Below are positions 7,374 through 62,059 of a stretch of 64,000 nucleotides of DNA, piece by piece. The notes below the pieces were generated by a model, which did not search any database, was not told the DNA's origin, and saw only the letters and a program-made list of their open reading frames with translations. Made by a program: the position numbers and the translations under genes. The DNA comes from Escherichia phage vB_EcoM_SA35RD: the sequence record OL960577.1. One strand, written 5' to 3'. Position 1 is the first letter of the stretch. Each line of letters starts with the position of its first letter.

Positions 7374-7398
7374 ATTATTCTCCTCTGGTTGATATGGT

Positions 7399-7427
7399 TA
7401 TAATATCAAAACCAGAGGAGAAGTAAA
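7399..7427 (-). promoter_or_regulatory. T4-type early promoter-like element
   Basis: GTTTAC-17nt-TATTAT; spacer is inverted repeat of downstream SD region. Confidence 0.45.
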
Positions 7428-7432
7428 CAACT

Positions 7433-7852
7433 TTATGCGAAAGCAGCTGGGCTATATTTTTTAATTTGGAATTCAGGAACTACCATGAACTGACCAGCGA
7501 AAACGATGTTATAAAGCTTAACACCATCTTCTACCCAACGGTCGCTAATAAATCCGGCGATTTGCTTAGTTTTCCATGGCGTTCCATCAGTTGCCGCAGC
7601 AATAGTGAATTCATGGTCTTTTTCAACAGAAACTGATCTGCATAGTCCCCATTTGAACGCTTTTTCTTCTGGCTCAATGAACTGGCTTGAGACGTAGCCA
7701 ATATTACCATTAGCATCACGAACTTTAACTTGGTTACGACCAAAAACCGGATCACTCACAGAAAGAACTTCAACCAACTTCCCGGCAACTTTAGAGCGAG
7801 AAGCAACAGATACATATACGTAATCACCTGTAGAGAGATTTACAATATTCAT
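7433..7852 (-). CDS. hypothetical protein, tandem paralog family member 1
   Basis: C-terminal motif SDRWVEDGVKLYNIVFAGQF shared with the two upstream ORFs. Confidence 0.5.
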   Translation of the reverse strand: MNIVNLSTGDYVYVSVASRSKVAGKLVEVLSVSDPVFGRNQVKVRDANGNIGYVSSQFIEPEEKAFKWGLCRSVSVEKDHEFTIAAATDGTPWKTKQIAGFISDRWVEDGVKLYNIVFAGQFMVVPEFQIKKYSPAAFA

Positions 7853-7861
7853 AATAATTCC

Positions 7862-8317
7862 TTAAGCTTTACGAGGAGACACATAGCGAGTGATTTCAGA
7901 TTCTTTAACAACTCGGAAGTCACCTAAGAATACGATATTGTATAACTTTTCACCATCTTCAACCCATTGGTCACTGATGAAGCCGCACATAATATCAGTT
8001 TTGTTTGGATAACCATATTCGTCGATGAAATCAAATTCTTTATCAGTCCGGAATTCAACGCCTTTGCAAAGGGCCCATTTGAACTGTACATTAGGTTCAG
8101 TAGAAGCAAAATGAGCGCTCACATGAGTTTCCAAGAATTTAGGACTTACGTAAGCGTACTGAGTTTCAGTTTTTCCAGAACTAGGAATGATTCGAACTTT
8201 AACTTCTTTAACACGTCCAGTGCCATTAGTACGAAGTCCTACCACTTCAACTAGACGACCTGCAGCTTTAGAACGAGATGCAGACGATACACGCTTAATT
8301 TCACCAATAGTAATCAT
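7862..8317 (-). CDS. hypothetical protein, tandem paralog family member 2
   Basis: Motif SDQWVEDGEKLYNIVFLGDFRVV; start moved to MITIGEIKR after SD, since longer ORF would start inside promoter. Confidence 0.5.
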   Translation of the reverse strand: MITIGEIKRVSSASRSKAAGRLVEVVGLRTNGTGRVKEVKVRIIPSSGKTETQYAYVSPKFLETHVSAHFASTEPNVQFKWALCKGVEFRTDKEFDFIDEYGYPNKTDIMCGFISDQWVEDGEKLYNIVFLGDFRVVKESEITRYVSPRKA

Positions 8318-8347
8318 AATTTCTCTCTCTTTGTTTAAATTGAATTC

Positions 8348-8377
8348 ATTATACTCCATCCATCCTTGGATGTACAA
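8348..8377 (-). promoter_or_regulatory. promoter cassette with internal palindrome (variant copy)
   Basis: TTGTAC ... CATCCA-TCCT-TGGATG ... TATAAT; both palindrome arms changed relative to other copies. Confidence 0.45.
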
Positions 8378-8379
8378 CA

Positions 8380-8874
8380 TTAATTAAGGATATTAACCAC
8401 AGCACTACGTGGAACTACACTAAAATCACCTGCATGAACAACGTTCAGAAGTTCAACACCGTCTTCAATCCACTGGTCAGTTACCCATCCATTTACTGGA
8501 CCTGCGAACGGACGTCGAATTGAAACATATTTACACAACAAATCAGTAGGCTCAATAGGCTTAATCAGGGTACCGTACATACAAGCGATATCCATATCAA
8601 TACAGATATCTTTAACGGGTTCTACTTCTTCAATCAACAGTTCAAAGTCGGTGCTTGGAAGGGCGGTAGTAGAAATTGTACCATATGAATTTTTAATTTC
8701 TAAGAATAACCAAGGGCCTTCAACTTGTTTGATGAAGTTAACAACAGTGAAACTATTACCTTGAGTGGCACCTAAAATTTCACAAAACTTTTCATAAGCT
8801 CGCACTGAAGCACCATACCAGTTGATTTGTTTTTCATCTTTCAGGATGTAAGTAGCCGTTGTATTGATATTCAT
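8380..8874 (-). CDS. hypothetical protein, tandem paralog family member 3
   Basis: Motif TDQWIEDGVELLNVVHAGDFSVVP; start moved to MNINTTAT after AGGAAA SD. Confidence 0.5.
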   Translation of the reverse strand: MNINTTATYILKDEKQINWYGASVRAYEKFCEILGATQGNSFTVVNFIKQVEGPWLFLEIKNSYGTISTTALPSTDFELLIEEVEPVKDICIDMDIACMYGTLIKPIEPTDLLCKYVSIRRPFAGPVNGWVTDQWIEDGVELLNVVHAGDFSVVPRSAVVNILN

Positions 8875-8904: not shown

Positions 8905-8934
8905 ATTATACTCCAACCATCCTTGGTTGTAAAC
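8905..8934 (-). promoter_or_regulatory. promoter cassette with internal palindrome
   Basis: GTTTAC-CAACCA-TCCT-TGGTTG-GAG-TATAAT; ~50 bp near-identical to copy at 50541-50590. Confidence 0.5.
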
Positions 8935-20053: not shown

Positions 20054-20079
20054 TTTGTTCTCCAGTAGTTGATAGGTCT

Positions 20080-20109
20080 ATAATAACACAACTACTGGAG
20101 AAGTAAACT
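20080..20109 (-). promoter_or_regulatory. T4-type early promoter-like element with RBS-pairing spacer
   Basis: GTTTAC-18nt-TATTAT-AGACCTATC; spacer AACTACTGGAG complementary to SD region CTCCAGTAGTT. Confidence 0.45.
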
Positions 20110-20483
20110 TAAAAACGTAATTTAGATACATCTGCGTTGATTTCGTTTTGGTTTGCGTCGTATGCAATTAAACGAACCGCTTTAGATGGGTCATTCAATG
20201 CATAGAAATGATGGAACATTGCTCGAACGATATCACCATTTACGAGTTCTACCTGGATAGGAGAACCTTTTTCGAGTTGGAAATGTTCATAAGCTTTGAT
20301 GGTTCGCAGATAATCAAGTTTTTGATTTCCGGCTCCAACGATTTGTACGATACGTTTGCCCATGTTTTCCATACGAGATACAATAGTTTTAGGAGCAAGA
20401 ATAACGTAGGTTGCCAGTGGAGAAACTACTTCAACAGTTGTGTTTTCGGTGATTGCAGTAAAAATTGCTTGAGACATATTCAT
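20109..20483 (-). CDS. hypothetical protein
   Basis: 124 aa ORF with upstream promoter motif. Confidence 0.45.
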   Translation of the reverse strand: MNMSQAIFTAITENTTVEVVSPLATYVILAPKTIVSRMENMGKRIVQIVGAGNQKLDYLRTIKAYEHFQLEKGSPIQVELVNGDIVRAMFHHFYALNDPSKAVRLIAYDANQNEINADVSKLRF

Positions 20484-47349: not shown

Positions 47350-47529
47350 TTAGTAAACGTTATAAAAGTCTCGATGAAAACGTTTATACTGTCGAATCAT
47401 TCTTTTAGTAGGACGTGTTACCGAAATGATTGAAGTCCTCATGTTCGGATTGTTTGGAGCCCCAATCATAATAAATTTCCAGGATTTTTGGCCGTTTGTT
47501 CTTTCGCCATAAAATAGTTCAGTTTTCAT
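47350..47529 (-). CDS. small basic protein, paralog of 47954..48124
   Basis: Hand translation MKTELFYGERTNGQKSWKFIMIGAPNNPNMRTSIISVTRPTKRMIRQYKRFHRDFYNVY. Confidence 0.3.
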   Translation of the reverse strand: MKTELFYGERTNGQKSWKFIMIGAPNNPNMRTSIISVTRPTKRMIRQYKRFHRDFYNVY

Positions 47530-47953: not shown

Positions 47954-48124
47954 TCAATATTCTCTATAAAAGTTACGATGAGAACGTTTAGCTTTGCGAA
48001 GCTGACGTTTAGTAGGACGAACTGTAAATGGTTGTCCAGAGAAAAAATTCGGATCGGTTTTAATAAGCAAATACCAATCATGCTTGCCATTTTTTAATAA
48101 ACGGTACAATAATTTAACTTGCAT
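47954..48124 (-). CDS. small basic protein, paralog of 47350..47529
   Basis: C-terminus TVRPTKRQLRKAKRSHRNFYREY resembles VTRPTKRMIRQYKRFHRDFYNVY. Confidence 0.3.
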   Translation of the reverse strand: MQVKLLYRLLKNGKHDWYLLIKTDPNFFSGQPFTVRPTKRQLRKAKRSHRNFYREY

Positions 48125-48252
48125 AATAATCTCTTCCCATCTCCATATCAATTAATTCATTTATTGAAGGTTCATCATAACACGTTTCTTCGTCGTTGTA
48201 AACTGTTTCGACGTCTGGCTCGACTGTCTCCCATCGAGCCGAATACCATGGC

Positions 48253-48609
48253 TTAACCCCGGAGTTTATTGAGCTCTTCATAATCAATCCAGGATTCTAG
48301 CCCTGACGGCAGGTCACATTCAATGTTCCACAGAAGCTCTTCAATGGCTTGCAGGCGATTATATTCTTCAACGGTAATGGTAACCATTGGTGCAACCGGT
48401 TCTGTCTTTTTAACCATCATGTCGTTCATCAGGACGTAAAGGTCATCACGAACGACAGTGTCGTTCCATCCCCATGATTTGGCTTCGTAAGCTAATGATG
48501 AAGGGAGCACATTTAAAACTTCAATAATAGTTGGAGCATCAGGACCAAGTTCATTGGCACAAACTTCGTATACATCTTGGAAATCTTTAAGATTTAATGA
48601 ATATGTCAT
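48253..48609 (-). CDS. hypothetical protein
   Basis: 118 aa ORF. Confidence 0.4.
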   Translation of the reverse strand: MTYSLNLKDFQDVYEVCANELGPDAPTIIEVLNVLPSSLAYEAKSWGWNDTVVRDDLYVLMNDMMVKKTEPVAPMVTITVEEYNRLQAIEELLWNIECDLPSGLESWIDYEELNKLRG

Positions 48610-48869
48610 TTAAAATATTCTCGTAGTTGGTCAAAGCCACCGATCGAAGTTCCATCAGGAGCAAACACTTGAGGCATAGTCAATCCGACTTGTGATTCAC
48701 GTCCAAGCTTAACCAGAAGCTCAGCAATTTTTTCTTCATCGAATACACCTTTTTCTGGCATAACATTAATGAATTCGAACGGCTGTTTCTTAACAGTCAG
48801 CAATCGTTTCGCATTATCACAATAAATGCATTTATGAATAATAGAGTCATACCCGTACACTTTAAACAT
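48606..48869 (-). CDS. nrdC: thioredoxin/glutaredoxin NrdC-like
   Basis: Active-site-like CIYCDNAKRL; size ~87 aa; start at MFKVYGYD. Confidence 0.6.
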   Translation of the reverse strand: MFKVYGYDSIIHKCIYCDNAKRLLTVKKQPFEFINVMPEKGVFDEEKIAELLVKLGRESQVGLTMPQVFAPDGTSIGGFDQLREYFK

Positions 48870-49275
48870 TATTTTTCCTTTCATCGATTAAATATGCAAT
48901 GCCAAATACAATACATGTAATAAAACCTGTTATACAGATAGAAACCAACAACACTGTACCAAAGAACCAAATCAAGTTATCTTTAGTAGTTTGTTTGATA
49001 TCCATCTCACGAATTTCTATAGCTATCGTATCACCTTTATTCAGAAGCGTATAAAACGAAGGTGATACACGCCTGTCAAAAACTCGTCCTTGCTCATCTT
49101 TATAGACTGCAATAAATTCTAATTTAGAATATTTTCCTGTAGATTGGCCTGAGATTAATTCCACTACCTCCACAGGAATTACTTTAGTTTCCATGTAAGT
49201 ATTCTGGCTGTTCCAAATGAATGGAATAATAGCAAAAACTAAAGCTGCGATAAAACAACGAAGGCTATATCTCAT
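48862..49275 (-). CDS. hypothetical membrane protein
   Basis: 137 aa; N- and C-terminal hydrophobic segments. Confidence 0.4.
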   Translation of the reverse strand: MRYSLRCFIAALVFAIIPFIWNSQNTYMETKVIPVEVVELISGQSTGKYSKLEFIAVYKDEQGRVFDRRVSPSFYTLLNKGDTIAIEIREMDIKQTTKDNLIWFFGTVLLVSICITGFITCIVFGIAYLIDERKNNV

Positions 49276-49580
49276 TATAATGTTCTCTCAAATTTGTGGA
49301 AGCATTTACGGCATTTCAATTTCAAGTTATCACTGGTCCAGTTAACCAGTTGGACTTGGATAGTTCCACATTCCGGACATGGATGTTTTGCTGCCGATTT
49401 GGCAGCATTTTCACGTCGTTCAACCATTTTCATTATTTCGTTCCATGCCGGAGGAACGAACTCTTCTTCACCATGAATTTTATCTCGCTGAACAAATTCA
49501 ATCTTTGAACTATCATCAATAAACTTAACTAAGCCATGATTAGTGCTCATATCAATATCCTCTAGAAGACGTAGGTTCAT
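49275..49580 (-). CDS. zinc-ribbon protein
   Basis: 101 aa; CPECG...CRKC. Confidence 0.4.
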   Translation of the reverse strand: MNLRLLEDIDMSTNHGLVKFIDDSSKIEFVQRDKIHGEEEFVPPAWNEIMKMVERRENAAKSAAKHPCPECGTIQVQLVNWTSDNLKLKCRKCFHKFERTL

Positions 49581-50527
49581 TATAACACCTCAATGGCATT
49601 TCGTAAACCATCCGCTTTCGCGTTCAGAGCTTTTAACGATTTAGTCTGTTCTTTAATCTGGGCTTCGACTTCTTTAAGACGAGATTTGAGATATTCACGT
49701 TCTTCGCTCAAGTTGTCAACTTTTTCTACTTTAGGTTCTTTAATAGTCTTAAGTTTATACTCGTTAGGGTTCTTCAACTTAATTTGAATGCGAGAACTGA
49801 ATAACATCGAACCGTTATCTTCGGTTTCGTCATACATTTCTACTACGTCCATGATTCTTAACATCATGCGAAGTTTATAAGACAGCGAACGAACGGTTTT
49901 ATTGTGCTTCTTAATTTCTTCAGCTTTCATGGTGCCGAGATTACGTGAGTAGTAATAAGGAACCTGGATATCAATTGACAATGATGCGTTACCATTACCT
50001 GTTGGTTTGAATACTGCAGTAACCCAATCTTTAACATGAACTTTATTTGTACGATCATCGCCACCAGTGAATAATTTACGAGAATGTTTAAAAAGCATAT
50101 TCACTTGGTTATTGAATTCACAAGCAAATTTATCAGCAAATTTAGTTTCAGGAATGGTAGATAACCAATCAGCCAAATGAGTCTTTTTAACATCATTAAC
50201 AATAGTGAATTCAACCAAATCGGTTTTAGATGTCACAGATTTAATAAAGCTCGGCTTCATAAAGTTTTTAATGTTATCGCGAGCTACAGTAGAAGATAAT
50301 AAACGAGAACGTTTGAACCATTGAAGCAGCGTCCCTAATGAATGAGAATATGCATTTTGAGTATCTTTACAGATATGATTTTCTTGGCCTGTGTATGTAA
50401 GAAAATCACGAAGAATACTATAAACCACACCTTTATGTGGAACATCAGTCCAAGCACCAGTAGCACGTTGAGCGTGAGCGTTAGCGATAAGACCGGCAAA
50501 GTATTCAATGTAATGTGAACGTGTCAT
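49580..50527 (-). CDS. hypothetical protein with C-terminal coiled coil
   Basis: 315 aa; heptad-rich C-terminus; palindrome-containing promoter cassette upstream. Confidence 0.5.
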   Translation of the reverse strand: MTRSHYIEYFAGLIANAHAQRATGAWTDVPHKGVVYSILRDFLTYTGQENHICKDTQNAYSHSLGTLLQWFKRSRLLSSTVARDNIKNFMKPSFIKSVTSKTDLVEFTIVNDVKKTHLADWLSTIPETKFADKFACEFNNQVNMLFKHSRKLFTGGDDRTNKVHVKDWVTAVFKPTGNGNASLSIDIQVPYYYSRNLGTMKAEEIKKHNKTVRSLSYKLRMMLRIMDVVEMYDETEDNGSMLFSSRIQIKLKNPNEYKLKTIKEPKVEKVDNLSEEREYLKSRLKEVEAQIKEQTKSLKALNAKADGLRNAIEVL

Positions 50528-50554
50528 AATATTTTCCTCTCGTTAAGATAGGTT

Positions 50555-50584
50555 CATTATACTCCAACCATCCTTGGTTGTAAA
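50555..50584 (-). promoter_or_regulatory. promoter cassette with internal palindrome
   Basis: GTTTAC-CAACCA-TCCT-TGGTTG-GAG-TATAAT. Confidence 0.5.
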
Positions 50585-50589
50585 CTGAT

Positions 50590-51549
50590 TTATGATTTTA
50601 ATGCATTCATTGCGTTAAAAAGTTTAGAGTACTGCAACTGGAGATTGGTCACCACCTGTTGAGCATCACGAAGCTTAGCTTGTGCTTTGTCAAGTTCAAC
50701 GGACAGTTGGTCTACAGTAGCCTTGATTTGGTTGTAATGATAATCTTCGGCCGGAAGAAGGTCATTAGAAACATTTAGTTTTACTGCCGACAGTTTGCAC
50801 ACATTTGGCAAACCTTTAAACATACCAGATTGTGCTGGAGAATATGCGCCTAGAACCTCTGCATTACCGACTGGTGTTGCTGTAATATTGCCTTCAAACA
50901 ATGCATTTTCCTTTTTAAGATTTTGATAGTATTCAGAGTCTTTGTGCCACCATGGCGCAGGAACCTTTTTACCAATAGATACACGAGCTTGGATAGCGAT
51001 ATGGCCCTTATTCTTGATAGGGTCGATAATATTAAGCTCACGAGAATAAATTGCTTTAATCTGGTGGATATTATCACCTAAAACTTCCAACGCTTGGTGA
51101 AATACACGAGCAACGTTATCATTCTTAGGTTTATACGTAAGAGTGAACTCATTCTCACTGATAACCATGATTTCCAACTTATCATAAGTATATTTCAAAT
51201 GTTTCATGTTAATTGCTTGAGGACGAATACGAGAAGCAATGGCCATCAGATTGTTAAGGTTATTCCGGAACTGCTTAGCGAAATATTGTCCTTCACCGCC
51301 AATACAAAAATTACGAAGTTTCTGTTTGGCCAATAAACGGCTGAACTCACCATTTTTAATGAACTCTTTAACGGGTGTGTTAGTAACACATTCAAATTGA
51401 GTAAACTTACGAGAATTAATCCCATAATACGAACAGATTTCCTCAATCTCTTCAGGAGTCTTTACAGGCATACGGATAGGATTAGGTCCTGGAGTATATG
51501 CGTTCGAGGTAAATTCTTTGATAAGTTCTCTACGTGTAATAAAAGCCAT
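50590..51549 (-). CDS. hypothetical protein with C-terminal coiled coil
   Basis: 319 aa; GAGGAA SD; palindrome promoter cassette upstream. Confidence 0.5.
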   Translation of the reverse strand: MAFITRRELIKEFTSNAYTPGPNPIRMPVKTPEEIEEICSYYGINSRKFTQFECVTNTPVKEFIKNGEFSRLLAKQKLRNFCIGGEGQYFAKQFRNNLNNLMAIASRIRPQAINMKHLKYTYDKLEIMVISENEFTLTYKPKNDNVARVFHQALEVLGDNIHQIKAIYSRELNIIDPIKNKGHIAIQARVSIGKKVPAPWWHKDSEYYQNLKKENALFEGNITATPVGNAEVLGAYSPAQSGMFKGLPNVCKLSAVKLNVSNDLLPAEDYHYNQIKATVDQLSVELDKAQAKLRDAQQVVTNLQLQYSKLFNAMNALKS

Positions 51550-51575
51550 TTTATATTCCTCATGTTGAAAAATTT

Positions 51576-51605
51576 ATTATACTCCAACCATCCTTGGTTG
51601 TACAT
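51576..51605 (-). promoter_or_regulatory. promoter cassette with internal palindrome
   Basis: GTACAA-CCAAGGATGGTTGG-AG-TATAAT. Confidence 0.5.
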
Positions 51606-52600
51606 CATTCCTTAAGAAGTTTTACTACCTGAATAAGATTAGCTCGTTCTGTTTTATTTTTACCATTTAAGCCTGCTAATCGTGAGATTTCATCGTCAGT
51701 CTGTTGAATAGTTACATTAAGTTCGTTAATCAAAGCTTCAAAGTATTTGATTTGCTCAGCATGTTTTGATTCAAATTTCTGAACCGGAATAACGTCTTGG
51801 TTTAGTTCATCAATAAGGTCTTTAAGAGCATCTTCTTGGTTGATATCATATTCAACTTCTTTTATTTCTTCAACGAGCTCGTCTTTATATCTAACGTCTT
51901 TTAGTCCTGGTGCTGGTCCTGAAATCTCTTCTTTAAGAGTACAAACATATCCAATACGGTATCCAATGCCGTCTCGCTTGATATCAACTTCGTCGATAAA
52001 TCCACAATGTTTAAGCCCGGAGCCGATTATGTCAAAATATCCTTGACGTCGTCCTTCAAACGTTACACGAACTACTAAGACAGTTTTACCTGCAACCTTT
52101 TGAAGCTCACATTTATAAAAGTCAGTTGAACCTGAATAACGTGGATGAGTTTTAAAGTTCATCTGACGATCTAGGCCCATTTGTAAGCGTGCTGTTACGG
52201 CCATAAAACGTGTTTGGTTCTCGTTAAGATGAGCAACAATCCATTTCAAAGGCATTTTACACTGTTCACGGCCGAACAAATCGGTACGTCCTAAATTACG
52301 CAGGATATTGTTAGAGTTAATCATCGACAGAACGTTAAGTTTATTCAGCGCGCTGAAGATTCCATCAGCCATTGATTTTCCATAACCTTTACACGCTTTA
52401 ATAAGTGCTCGCGGCAGATTAGTATAGATTTCAGACGGCATATGAAAATCAAATTTACTAACCAGTAATTGATGAACTTGGATAGCAATTTGTTCATAAT
52501 TAAGTGCTCTGCGATCGTTATGGTCTTTAAACCACACTTTAATCTGTGAAGCACATAAACCGTTAATTTCATGTTTTACCGCATCAGATGTAATGCTCAT
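51605..52600 (-). CDS. hypothetical protein with C-terminal coiled coil
   Basis: 331 aa. Confidence 0.5.
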   Translation of the reverse strand: MSITSDAVKHEINGLCASQIKVWFKDHNDRRALNYEQIAIQVHQLLVSKFDFHMPSEIYTNLPRALIKACKGYGKSMADGIFSALNKLNVLSMINSNNILRNLGRTDLFGREQCKMPLKWIVAHLNENQTRFMAVTARLQMGLDRQMNFKTHPRYSGSTDFYKCELQKVAGKTVLVVRVTFEGRRQGYFDIIGSGLKHCGFIDEVDIKRDGIGYRIGYVCTLKEEISGPAPGLKDVRYKDELVEEIKEVEYDINQEDALKDLIDELNQDVIPVQKFESKHAEQIKYFEALINELNVTIQQTDDEISRLAGLNGKNKTERANLIQVVKLLKE

Positions 52601-52662
52601 AACTATTTCCTCAGATTGAATTGGAACTCAAAACCATTATAACCCGTCCTTGGGTAAAGCGT

Positions 52663-53190
52663 TTATGCGTGAACCGTCTTTAAACGTTCTTCAAATTTCC
52701 GAAGAGTACTAATACGTTCTGCTTTCTGTTTTGTATAGTTTGCAATACGTTCTGAAGTGAGAGCGTATCGTTCGTTTACTGTTTCTTTCATGAAGTCAGG
52801 GATTTCACGAGAAGCTTTAATTTCATCAAACTTATCGAGTACTGCCTGGTCTTCAGCGATTAAATTTTCGTACATCTCGATATCTTTCTTGATAAACTCG
52901 ATATCTTCCTGGGTTACTTTGGATAAACGAGATGCTTTATCCTTTTTGTACTGCTCGTTAGTTTCACGAGACCAGAATAATGTACGTTTTTTGTTGGTGT
53001 TTTTGTAGACTTCCACAATTCCAACTGAATCGATGATAACGATCCAATTCCAGCGAGATTTGAAAATCTGTCCTCCGTCCACGGTAATCTCGTTACCATA
53101 AGCAATGTCATTAAAGAACTTACTTTGTGCTTCAGATTTAAATTTACCGTCGTTATAATTTACCAGGTTGAAAATATCTTTAGCGTTCAT
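52663..53190 (-). CDS. hypothetical protein
   Basis: 175 aa; promoter cassette upstream. Confidence 0.45.
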   Translation of the reverse strand: MNAKDIFNLVNYNDGKFKSEAQSKFFNDIAYGNEITVDGGQIFKSRWNWIVIIDSVGIVEVYKNTNKKRTLFWSRETNEQYKKDKASRLSKVTQEDIEFIKKDIEMYENLIAEDQAVLDKFDEIKASREIPDFMKETVNERYALTSERIANYTKQKAERISTLRKFEERLKTVHA

Positions 53191-53217
53191 GTTTTACCTC
53201 CAGTAGTTGATAGGTCT

Positions 53218-53246
53218 ATAATAACATAACTATAGACCTTGTAAAC
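53218..53246 (-). promoter_or_regulatory. T4-type early promoter-like element
   Basis: GTTTAC-17nt-TATTAT-AGACCTATC; ~30 bp identical to locus at 20060-20090. Confidence 0.45.
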
Positions 53247-53248
53247 AA

Positions 53249-53536
53249 CTAAAAGAAACTTTTTTCGGTATTTTTTCCACTGAACCAAACAGACTTCGGG
53301 ATTTTTTGTAATTTTTCAGATTTAAGTTTCTCTTCCTGTTCTTTCTTATATACACCCTTGTCGTACTGGAGCGTCTCTATGGCATTCTTTTGCAAACGAT
53401 CTAAGGTAATTAAGGCTTTAGTTTTTCCTTTCAAGGAAGAGTCCTGGCGAACCTCCTCACTATATTGCATCGTAGAACTAACCATACGATGAGCATACAG
53501 TTCGACTGCGGCTTTAATTTTTTGCATAAAATCCAT
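53249..53536 (-). CDS. hypothetical protein
   Basis: 95 aa ORF. Confidence 0.4.
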   Translation of the reverse strand: MDFMQKIKAAVELYAHRMVSSTMQYSEEVRQDSSLKGKTKALITLDRLQKNAIETLQYDKGVYKKEQEEKLKSEKLQKIPKSVWFSGKNTEKSFF

Positions 53537-53673: not shown

Positions 53674-54675
53674 TTATTTCAGTAAAGTTACTTCAGAGAT
53701 TTCCTCCCAACCATCTTTATCAGTTGAAATAAAATCTGCTACATAAAGAGCGGTACGTAATGATACATTGCGAAGACGAGATACATTAGCCTTCATCCAG
53801 GACAATGCTTTATACGTTTCTGCATCAGTCAGACCACGTTTCTGCATCATGTCAGTAGATAATATTACATCTTCAACTCGAACCATAATCTCTTCATTAG
53901 AGTGTACTCCAAGGTCGAGATACACTGAGCGAGATACTAAAGCTTGAAGGTGTGGAGCAAGTTTCGAACCGCGTTCTAACTCTTTATCGATATCAACGTT
54001 TGTAATGAAAACGATAGTACCTTCAAACTCAAATTCTTTATCAATACCCTTATCATCGAGATAAGATGACGCAGTGCTCCAACAAACTTTGCGTTTATCA
54101 CCGGTATCTAATGCTGCTTTAAGAAGGTTCAGGATGTCCATATCTGAGAATACGTCAACGTCATCGATTAAGAGAACGCTGTCTGCATCACGGTTGAGCC
54201 AAAGTTGTTCGTAAAGGCCAATACCAGAGATTTTACCATTAATGCTTTTGTATTTGATGAAACCATTATCATTAGCATTATTAAGTGCTTTATCCAGAGA
54301 ATACGTCTTACCAATACCGGCTGCACCTGAAATAATGAGTGAACGAATTTTGCCATCGATAATGCCATTCGTCATCATGTTCATTACTTTAAAGCGTTTG
54401 TTGATACGAGTTTTCATATCTTCAGTGCTTTCAACAACTGCAACTGGTGATGTCTCAACTCCTTCCATTACGATGTCTGATTTGAAGACCCATACTCCAC
54501 GTTCAGAACCATCAATCATAACGAAAATTTTACCGTCACCTAAGTGGGAACATTCAGGATTAAGCTTTGCTGGGAACCAGGTCTTTGTGGCAACATAAGA
54601 ACCAGAGATTTCGTTATTACGATAGATACCTTTTTTGATTTGAACGTTGAACATTTTATTCTCCAATTTACTCAT
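53674..54675 (-). CDS. P-loop ATPase (Walker A/B)
   Basis: 333 aa; Walker A GAAGIGKT, Walker B LLIDDVD. Confidence 0.5.
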   Translation of the reverse strand: MSKLENKMFNVQIKKGIYRNNEISGSYVATKTWFPAKLNPECSHLGDGKIFVMIDGSERGVWVFKSDIVMEGVETSPVAVVESTEDMKTRINKRFKVMNMMTNGIIDGKIRSLIISGAAGIGKTYSLDKALNNANDNGFIKYKSINGKISGIGLYEQLWLNRDADSVLLIDDVDVFSDMDILNLLKAALDTGDKRKVCWSTASSYLDDKGIDKEFEFEGTIVFITNVDIDKELERGSKLAPHLQALVSRSVYLDLGVHSNEEIMVRVEDVILSTDMMQKRGLTDAETYKALSWMKANVSRLRNVSLRTALYVADFISTDKDGWEEISEVTLLK

Positions 54676-54692
54676 TTCGTTTCGATAGGTCT

Positions 54693-54721
54693 ATAATAAC
54701 ATATCCTAAAAGCATGTACAC
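54693..54721 (-). promoter_or_regulatory. T4-type early promoter-like element
   Basis: GTGTAC-17nt-TATTAT-AGACCTATC. Confidence 0.4.
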
Positions 54722-54739
54722 TACTTTTTAAAAATATTT

Positions 54740-54767
54740 TAACCCCCTAAAGGGACCCGAAGGTCCC
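54740..54767 (-). terminator. hairpin with UUCG loop downstream of secreted-protein gene
   Basis: GGGACC-CGAA-GGTCCC; moderately U-rich after on minus RNA. Confidence 0.35.
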
Positions 54768-58744: not shown

Positions 58745-59326
58745 TTATAACAACCCTGTCAAATCATTCCAATGCTTCCGGCATAATGACACGTATCTAT
58801 CGGTATCACCAATTTCAATTTGACTGCCATCTGTAATTGGAAGTCCGTCTTCCGTGACTCTAGCTACCATTGTGGCCTTTTTACCACAATGACAGACACC
58901 TTTAAGTTCAACAAGCTTATCGGCAATAGCCATTAATGCTTGAGAACCTTCAAATAGATTACCTTTAAAATCTGTTCGTAGTCCATATGCCATTACCGGC
59001 ACATTGTATACGTCAACAATACGACTAAGTTGATACACCTTTTCAGTAGTTAAGAACTGAGCTTCGTCAACAAATACACAATGAATATCCTTTTGTGCTG
59101 CAGCCCATTTATAGAATTCAAAGATATCCATGTCTTTTGTAATTATATTGGCATCCTGACGAATACCAATACGAGAGACTATTTCACCTTTTGAATCGCG
59201 AGTATCAATAGCCGGTTTAAGAACTAATACACCCATGCCACGTTCTTTATAGTTGTGTGCGGCAGTAAGTAATGAAGCAGACTTACCAGCGTTCATAGCG
59301 GCATATGTAAAAATTAAACTAGCCAT
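58745..59326 (-). CDS. tk: thymidine kinase
   Basis: 193 aa; P-loop AAMNAGKS and C-terminal zinc motif CHCGKKA; T4 synteny. Confidence 0.85.
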   Translation of the reverse strand: MASLIFTYAAMNAGKSASLLTAAHNYKERGMGVLVLKPAIDTRDSKGEIVSRIGIRQDANIITKDMDIFEFYKWAAAQKDIHCVFVDEAQFLTTEKVYQLSRIVDVYNVPVMAYGLRTDFKGNLFEGSQALMAIADKLVELKGVCHCGKKATMVARVTEDGLPITDGSQIEIGDTDRYVSLCRKHWNDLTGLL

Positions 59327-61740: not shown

Positions 61741-61768
61741 TTTGATTTCTCCTCTAGTTGACAGGTCT

Positions 61769-61797
61769 ATAGTAACACAACTAGAGGAGAAGTAAAC
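61769..61797 (-). promoter_or_regulatory. T4-type early promoter-like element upstream of regB with RBS-pairing spacer
   Basis: GTTTAC-17nt-TACTAT; 14-bp inverted repeat TTCTCCTCTAGTTG / CAACTAGAGGAGAA spans promoter and SD. Confidence 0.45.
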
Positions 61798-61801
61798 TAC
61801 T

Positions 61802-62059
61802 TTATTGATAAAATGGAGTTAAAGCCCAAGATTCTTTAGATACTATATTGGCGAAATGCCTCATCTCTTCGATTTGGCGACGACGTTGGTCAGCATAGTC
61901 TTCTTCGCCTTCTTCCTTACAATCTTCAAGGTCTTCTTCAAGATACTTTAAGTATTCACTACAAATTTTGTTGACCTTTTCTTGGAAGTCCAATAACCCA
62001 GTAATAGTAGAAGCCATTAGTATTTTTCCTCGGGTCGAAATACTGCACGACATGCCCAC
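61802..62059 (-). CDS. hypothetical protein
   Basis: 85 aa ORF. Confidence 0.4.
   Translation of the reverse strand: MGMSCSISTRGKILMASTITGLLDFQEKVNKICSEYLKYLEEDLEDCKEEGEEDYADQRRRQIEEMRHFANIVSKESWALTPFYQ

Follow-up and report, generated by a model that had tools for sequence, protein, structure and literature searches.

What do three consecutive genes of similar length encode in the hyperplastic nrdC region of a T4-like phage, are their products related to each other, and what might they do for the phage? The question is raised by Escherichia phage vB_EcoM_SA35RD (sequence record OL960577.1), of which a stretch of 64 000 nucleotides, called here the window, was analysed. The original prediction had picked out three neighbouring open reading frames (ORFs) of 315, 319 and 331 amino acids (aa), suspected of forming a related set with coiled-coil C-termini. 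The lengths proved exact, and the three ORFs, labelled A315, B319 and C331, all lie on the minus strand. We read them as diverged tandem paralogues, expressed early and dispensable, that would act as coiled-coil-tailed host-range or anti-defence factors; the probability that we attach to this reading as a whole is about 0.5.

Identity, relationship and C-terminal tails

The three genes are the following.

49580..50527, minus strand: A315, orthologue of NrdC.3, 315 aa (ORF list, BLASTP, phrog_1435, homologues with PF26897)
50590..51549, minus strand: B319, NrdC.5-type protein, Pfam family DUF7235, 319 aa (ORF list, Pfam, BLASTP)
51605..52600, minus strand: C331, NrdC.6-like, probable member of the superfamily described below, 331 aa (ORF list, BLASTP, phrog_2257, hhalign)

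Judged by sequence, they are the counterparts of the known T4 genes nrdC.3, nrdC.5 and nrdC.6 in a known hyperplastic region, an identity that the original prediction had missed, as it had the anti-Dsr1 role already demonstrated by experiment for nrdC.5. A315 is 56 per cent identical to T4 NrdC.3 over its full length (315 aa; BLASTP, E = 5e-118), matches phrog_1435 (PHROGs, E = 4e-103) and has the position of the NrdC.3 family, nrdC.2 coming next with overlapping stop and start. B319 is 24.5 per cent identical to T4 NrdC.5 over 302 aa (BLASTP). Membership of DUF7235 was taken as a full-length profile match exceeding the 30-bit gathering score; B319 reaches 399.1 bits (E = 1.9e-119, profile positions 1–307 of 307) and T4 NrdC.5, also at full length, 420.6 bits (E = 5e-126), and the Pfam search gave no DUF7235 match for A315 or C331. 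B319 and T4 NrdC.5 further share the slot, the size and a C-terminal motif L..A.NAL; they differ in several long insertions of T4 NrdC.5 that are missing in B319. The homologue of B319 in RB69 bears the name NrdC.5. C331 is 29 per cent identical to T4 NrdC.6 over 269 aa (BLASTP, E = 2.6e-18; tblastn, E = 3e-17), has a tail 56 residues longer than that of T4 NrdC.6, and matches phrog_2257 (E = 1.5e-127). The three proteins thus belong to three separate function-less PHROGs, and their database homologues carry PF26897 (A315), PF23882 (B319) and PF26899 (C331).

Placing these genes in the variable region was correct: nrdC is located at 48606–48884 and tk at 58745–59326, and the region is known as hyperplastic. 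Positions 49200–53300 of the window share 96–98 per cent identity with numerous Mosigvirus genomes of Escherichia and Shigella phages (such as 348Ecol098PP, NBG1 and PhAPEC2), and in NBG1 the equivalent region is flanked by nrdC, the thioredoxin gene, on one side and by a gene for a putative nucleotidyltransferase on the other. All genes of the region are carried by the minus strand; the equivalent block of the T4 record is nrdC and nrdC.1 through nrdC.11. The gene order NrdC.6, NrdC.5, (NrdC.4), NrdC.3 is common to T4 and the window, in which tblastn found no NrdC.4 or NrdC.1 gene. The next genes encode NrdC.8 (84% identity to T4), NrdC.9 and NrdC.10 (77.5%; BLASTP). The base composition of the three genes is that of the phage.

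The absence of obvious mutual similarity, as first described, holds for BLASTP, which gives nothing better than E = 2.6 among A315, B319 and C331. It does not hold for profile methods, which join all three. Shallow family profiles, built from database homologues only, gave hhalign probabilities of 0.3–8.7 per cent and no significant link; the links emerged only once diverse loci had been added. These were gathered through the conserved neighbour NrdC.10 and comprise 11 annotated loci and 47 IMG/VR loci; ORF starts in unannotated loci are the first ATG, and the E-values that follow come from small local databases. According to the clustering of the ORFs, nearly every sampled T4-like phage has at least one gene of 290–390 aa in this slot, and these genes form many clusters.

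With these loci, hhalign links NrdC.3/4 to the single-copy genes of Gelderlandvirus, Karamvirus, a Klebsiella phage and Acinetobacter phages (97.5%, E = 6e-12) and to the NrdC.5 family (85%, E = 6e-6, 200 columns); the latter link stays at 84 per cent after removal of the last 65 residues. NrdC.5 is linked to the single-copy genes at 91 per cent; for the NrdC.6 family against the merged profile the value is 92 per cent (E = 6e-7), with 147 globular columns aligned. When 33 clusters were compared all against all, 24 pairs had a probability of at least 20 per cent; every one of them falls among the locus clusters, and none includes any of the 12 control clusters. One locus cluster (cluster 18) forms a bridge between NrdC.5 (94%) and NrdC.6 (88.8%). 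Iterative hidden Markov model (HMM) searches were conducted on proteins lacking the last 70 residues. From an NrdC.3 seed they first recruited NrdC.4, next clusters 40 and 18 and finally the NrdC.5 and NrdC.6 families, before converging on 12 clusters with 77 sequences; control seeds stayed unexpanded.

An alignment of 23 sequences has one motif order in every branch. It begins with a helix K-x-S-R-x-L-S...A...L..F and a second helix N...L(L/M)..(A/G)-x-R-L..G-x-D, represented by FAKQFRNNLNNLMAIASRI in B319, FACEFNNQVNMLFKHSRKL in A315 and IVAHLNENQTRFMAVTARL in C331. A helix L..AL..MD.V comes next, followed by a proline linker and a tail ending in L..A(L/I)..L. From these profile matches we conclude that A315 and B319 are very probably remote paralogues, and that C331 is probably another. 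The suspicion of a related set is therefore supported by sequence profiles (hhalign and iterative HMM), and not by structure.

Comparison across about 55 T4-like loci leads to a single lineage-restricted group: there is evidence, at the level of profiles, for one Straboviridae-restricted superfamily composed of NrdC.3, NrdC.4, NrdC.5, NrdC.6 and the single genes of 290–390 aa of other genera. At least one member occupies the slot in 46 of these loci. Most genera have one copy per locus, Mosigvirus and Dhakavirus have three and T4-type phages four; multi-copy members are always in tandem and their order is constant. The NrdC.3-, NrdC.5- and NrdC.6-type families are each narrow and fast-diverging. 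The B319 type was found by tblastn in 131 phage records, all Mosigvirus-like; the NrdC.3-family profile, compared with 1.84 billion representatives, has five matches, all of the same family or NrdC.4-like, and a scan of IMG/VR with the DUF7235 alignment detected four loci only. Between HX01 and the window, identity is 100 per cent for NrdC.10, 90 per cent for the B319 homologue and 84 per cent for the A315 homologue. In HX01 and NBG1, identity drops at residues 217–250 (approx.) of B319, in the linker, and at about residues 10–43 of A315. At 50800–50900 and 50400–50500, local identity to close relatives is 53–79 per cent, against 97–100 per cent on either side. Such local drops suggest either localised diversifying selection or patch recombination.

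The C-terminal tails are located as follows.

49583..49726, minus strand: A315 tail, residues 268–315 (heptad score; AlphaFold2 helix 274–314)
50593..50745, minus strand: B319 tail, residues 269–319 (heptad score; AlphaFold2 helix 267–318)
51674..51760, minus strand: heptad-rich segment of the C331 tail, residues 281–309 (heptad score; tails of the other families line up with it in the 23-sequence alignment)

That the C-termini are of the coiled-coil type was confirmed. We used an ad hoc heptad score, with 300 shuffles per protein and the 99th percentile as threshold. Each of the three segments exceeds the threshold, the observed maximum is reached by none of the 300 shuffles, and the periodicity extends over at least four heptads, which in A315 and B319 coincide with the helix predicted by AlphaFold2. 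Neither of the neighbours NrdC.8 and NrdC.10 passes the threshold. Among 75 distinct superfamily members, 40 pass it, always at the C-terminus (40/40), compared with nine of the 306 other ORFs of the same loci. Both the family and the superfamily profiles match only coiled coils among PDB sequences (Lpp, HA2, DotF and GCN4 chimeras for the superfamily, at profile positions of approximately 250–314).

AlphaFold2 models have a low mean confidence (predicted local distance difference test, pLDDT, 45.4 for A315 with an 18-sequence family alignment and 39.5 for B319 with a 22-sequence alignment of the three families), and only the long terminal helix reaches pLDDT 60–80. Both low-confidence models consist of N-terminal helices, a long helix, three strands, helices, one or more strands, a linker and a long helix, and this like order of predicted elements is weak evidence of a common fold. 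In our reading, some 250 residues of each protein form a basic, rapidly evolving globular part, which a linker with proline joins to a conserved coiled coil of roughly 45 residues at the C-terminus. The coiled coil would most likely turn the protein into a dimer or trimer.

Promoter-like hairpin cassettes

The heading of the original prediction placed each of the three genes behind a near-identical promoter cassette, which overstates the case; its text named two, correctly. These two are A315 and B319, which lie directly downstream of palindrome cassettes containing an identical 27-mer, TACAACCAAGGATGGTTGGAGTATAAT, at 50556–50582 and 51576–51602. C331 is preceded by a related cassette with a different spacing. 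The cassettes are the following.

50556..50584, minus strand: cassette 5' of A315; TTTACA, 17 nt, TATAAT; arms 50565–50570 and 50575–50580 (11/12 consensus, exact repeat, inverted repeat CAACCA-AGGA-TGGTTG)
51576..51604, minus strand: cassette 5' of B319; TGTACA, 17 nt, TATAAT, same hairpin; arms 51585–51590 and 51595–51600 (consensus, exact repeat, inverted repeat)
52636..52658, minus strand: cassette 5' of C331; TTTACC-CAAGGACGGGT-TATAAT, stem ACCC/GGGT (sequence; hairpin RNA fold -4.4 kcal/mol)
8905..8933, minus strand: third exact copy, 5' of a paralogue downstream of dexA (repeat, inverted repeat)
8348..8376, minus strand: fourth copy, arms CATCCA/TGGATG at 8357–8372 with pairing kept, 5' of another paralogue downstream of dexA (repeat, inverted repeat)

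The further copies of the 27-mer are exact at 8905–8931 and have two mismatches at 8348–8374; the number expected from shuffled sequences is 0.00. The 27-mer can be parsed as a -35 element (TTTACA or TGTACA), a 17-nt spacer and TATAAT, with 10–11 of 12 consensus positions. The palindrome CAACCA/TGGTTG around an AGGA loop is located inside the -35/-10 spacer and forms a 6-bp stem (-5.3 kcal/mol). At the place equivalent to the A315 cassette, the NBG1 record annotates a promoter. In the C331 cassette, no more than 11 nt separate the -35-like hexamer from the -10 element; this cassette is orthologous to the one that precedes nrdC.7 in T4.

A scan for stems of at least 5 bp closing on AGGA, in T4-like loci (about 2 Mb, both strands), gave 33 sites, 31 of them on the coding strand. 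Of these 31, 27 adjoin a -10-like element and have one of five stem types: TTATACCA, CCACA, AGCCA, CATCCA and CAACCA. In T4, such cassettes stand 5' of nrdC.7, nrdC.4 and nrdC.3. The stems covary around the loop (CAACCA/TGGTTG, CATCCA/TGGATG, CCACA/TGTGG, AGCCA/TGGCT, TTATACCA/TGGTATAA); both arms change together, which argues that the pairing is under selection. The window copies, like the cassette before T4 nrdC.3, have a GGAG where the stem ends on its 3' side or directly behind that point (1 nt behind it in T4).

The AGGA hairpins are weak (-4.4 to -6.5 kcal/mol), have no U-tract and lie within the promoter spacer or overlap the -10 element. A terminator role is unlikely for a weak stem without a U-tract, and Rfam has no match in the window at gathering thresholds. 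The closest known elements are the PeSL (promoter-early stem-loop) cassettes of T4-type phages, in which a stem-loop terminator or attenuator is located just upstream of the promoter (Arbiol 2010, PMC2839356; Comeau 2014, PMC4122927). Like PeSLs, the window cassettes are short, repeated and intergenic, combine a sigma-70-like promoter with a stem-loop, a Shine–Dalgarno (SD) sequence and an ATG, and are found in hyperplastic regions next to variable genes. The promoters are also similar: TTTACW, N17, TAYWAT for PeSLs of the T4/PST pair; TTTACA or TGTACA, N17, TATAAT in the window. Unlike in PeSLs, the stem-loop is inside the -35/-10 spacer and not upstream of the promoter, the stem is short (5–8 bp, -4 to -6.5 kcal/mol) and the AGGA loop is conserved. 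In view of their position, weakness and lack of a U-tract, these hairpins are distinct from the terminator stem-loops, upstream of the promoter, by which PeSLs are defined.

Gene content around the cassettes differs between T4 and the window. In T4, nrdC.4 lies between two cassettes; the window has no nrdC.4 and one cassette is left. The cassette after nrdC.8 precedes nrdC.7 in T4 and the NrdC.6-type gene in the window. This comparison fits gain and loss of genes mediated by cassettes. The idea that cassettes are the mosaic boundaries relative to HX01 and NBG1 was ruled out, since identity drops inside B319 and A315.

A second tandem array, of three small paralogues (139, about 151 and about 164 aa), is located 3' of dexA at 7433–8874 on the minus strand. 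Its members have 43 per cent identity or a common C-terminal motif (E = 1e-10). Two of the three are preceded by a cassette of the A315/B319 type, so that the cassette is again associated with a tandem gene family.

There is another family of repeated early-promoter cassettes in the window, GTTTAC...TATAGACCTATC, with copies at 53198–53265, 20060–20127, 61749–61816, 7380–7443 and 54684–54740. Long inverted repeats either flank its -10 element or overlap with it, for example AGGTCTATA/TATAGACCT upstream of nrdC.8, or CTCCAGTAGTTG/CAACTACTGGAG, which includes the SD sequence.

Possible functions and rival explanations

Analysis of the globular parts with Pfam, PHROGs, NCBIfam and PADLOC revealed nothing informative beyond DUF7235 and the function-less PHROGs, and literature searches on DUF7235, PF26897 and PF26899 found no papers. 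The main functional lead comes from T4. A T4 clone with compensatory deletions lost plating on ECOR17, and disruption of dsr1 in ECOR17 restored it (Srikant et al., PMC9391042); nrdC.5 in trans restored plating of the deletion mutant on MG1655 with dsr1 (PMC9391042). The genes nrdC.1–6 of T4 can be lost as one block (PMC9825161). The T-even nrdC region is emerging as an anti-defence island, with gp49.2 inhibiting OLD (PMC13096335) and NrdC.1 inhibiting Septu (bioRxiv 10.1101/2025.11.20.689424) in addition to NrdC.5 acting against Dsr1; the anti-OLD and anti-Septu genes sit a few hundred bases away. We propose an anti-defence role for the three proteins because T4 NrdC.5 overcomes Dsr1 and neighbouring genes counter OLD and Septu.

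According to this proposal, the three genes would be transcribed early from sigma-70-type promoters and would be dispensable on laboratory hosts. Each paralogue may neutralise a different host immunity protein. By oligomerising the variable recognition domain, the coiled coil may permit multivalent binding to defence proteins that are themselves oligomeric. B319, as the counterpart of T4 NrdC.5, would be the candidate for a SIR2-type target; the activity against Dsr1, the SIR2 defence of E. coli ECOR17, is that of T4 NrdC.5, to which B319 is likened by sequence. DSAD1, a phage inhibitor of DSR2 whose direct binding neutralises a SIR2-type NADase defence, offers an analogy that is functional only, with no sequence relationship found. 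The promoter-hairpin cassette could provide each gene with a self-contained expression module, and the cassettes, as short identical repeats, could be the places where genes are lost, gained and duplicated.

A broader version of this proposal is tentative, and we consider it rather unlikely in its entirety. It would unite all members in one hypervariable superfamily of 'coiled-coil-anchored inhibitors', with arrays of three to four paralogues in the genera that infect E. coli, each paralogue directed against a different oligomeric defence protein; Dsr1 would be the first of these targets to be known. Duplication, movement and exchange of the modules would be made possible by the CCAAGGATGG hairpin cassette embedded in the promoter.

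Several observations weigh against the reading of the three genes as anti-defence paralogues. The common fold has no usable model (pLDDT 45.4 and 39.5). A Foldseek search of the A315 model against BFVD gave template-modelling (TM) scores of at most 0.32, even to an orthologue with 55 per cent identity, and was disregarded because of this low score to so close a relative. The NrdC.6 link is the weakest: direct comparison of families by hhalign reaches only 18–23 per cent (23% with NrdC.3/4), so that the link depends on intermediates, and iterative searches are prone to drift. Literature searches found no functional study of nrdC.3, nrdC.4 or nrdC.6, nrdC.4 being mentioned once, in passing, in a genome announcement. 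B319 is only 24.5 per cent identical to T4 NrdC.5, and the same target can therefore not be assumed. The isoelectric point (pI) is 9.3–9.5 for A315, B319 and T4 NrdC.3, NrdC.5 and NrdC.6, and 7.5–7.6 for C331 and T4 NrdC.4; the basic pI of A315 and B319 would equally suit nucleic-acid binding. The promoters are called by consensus match, and the 10-kb region has 36 promoter-like sites against 33.5 in shuffled sequences. Finally, the identity breakpoints relative to HX01 and NBG1 are inside genes and not at cassettes.

The basic pI brings us to the main rival, by which the proteins are homologous and yet directed at nucleic acids: basic DNA or RNA binders, dimerised by the coiled coil, that remodel nucleic acid of the host or the phage, or conceal a trigger, any anti-defence effect then being indirect. 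We regard this as unlikely. PMC9391042 leaves the mechanism of NrdC.5 against Dsr1 open, and we did not find the trigger of Dsr1 stated in the literature searched, both of which accord with such an activity. However, no DNA- or RNA-binding domain was detected with Pfam, NCBIfam, PADLOC or PDB, the pI of C331 and T4 NrdC.4 is near neutral, and rapid, patchy divergence is better suited to an arms race between proteins than to a conserved nucleic-acid target. The idea that the proteins are DNA mimics was dropped, the proteins being basic or neutral.

It is improbable that the three proteins are unrelated and alike only in size and in a convergent coiled-coil tail, the profile links being artefacts of low-complexity helices. 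The BLASTP result, the low probabilities from shallow profiles and the separation of the three families in PHROGs and Pfam would all be expected in that case. Nevertheless, the links survive the loss of the last 65–70 residues and span 115–250 colinear globular columns, the 12 control clusters never link although some contain coiled coils or are of similar size, the motifs F-A-x-x-F-x-N-N-x-N-x-L...R-L and L..AL..MD.V occur in a common order, and one genomic slot holds all members. We find it very improbable that the genes are near-neutral passengers that persist by riding on mobile promoter cassettes (PeSL-like modules) without specifically benefiting the phage. In favour of it, T4 can do without them (PMC9825161), the hyperplastic region has repeated cassettes, copy number varies and members are lost (NrdC.4 and NrdC.1 in the window). 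Against this, the ORFs are intact, their length and motif order are conserved across genera at only about 15–20 per cent identity, the slot is occupied in most of the sampled loci, and a host-range phenotype is demonstrated for NrdC.5.

Coming back to the reading as tandem anti-defence paralogues, what is new here is modest: the evidence for one coiled-coil-tailed NrdC.3–6 superfamily, and a covarying hairpin inside a repeated early-promoter cassette. Neither the superfamily link nor the promoter-embedded hairpin was found described in full-text literature searches. If NrdC.3–6 do form one family, the characterised member would guide work on four to five uncharacterised T4 genes and their counterparts in the sampled T4-like loci and, more widely, in related phage genomes, and these genes would constitute a concrete list of candidates for screening against defence systems. 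In that case a common architecture is suggested as well, in which a conserved stalk that oligomerises would carry a variable recognition domain. The practical interest lies in predicting host range and in engineering T4-like therapeutic phages. No established concept is altered; the locus is an ordinary yet informative piece of a known anti-defence gene region.

Other observations in the window

An nrdC.7-like gene for a membrane protein (48862–49275; 41% identity to T4 NrdC.7) is placed between nrdC.2 and nrdC; in T4, nrdC.7 is between nrdC.8 and nrdC.6. No homologue of nrdC.1, the gene of the T4 Septu inhibitor, was detected in the window.

The strong conservation of NrdC.10 (53674–54675), a P-loop/AAA-like protein, contrasts with the fast evolution of the adjacent genes. 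NrdC.10 is found in 1310 phage records, with 40–100 per cent identity across Straboviridae, and has matches of about 35–41 per cent identity in large-genome phages such as RaK2. A motif TGCTT, resembling a MotA box, is located upstream of its gene.

Two small ORFs of 59 and 65 aa (47350–47529 and 47954–48151) are located on either side of a pin-like gene. A 55-nt repeat (76% identity) is common to both, as is the motif RPTKR..R..KR.HR.FY at the C-terminus, and they resemble a small pair of paralogues.

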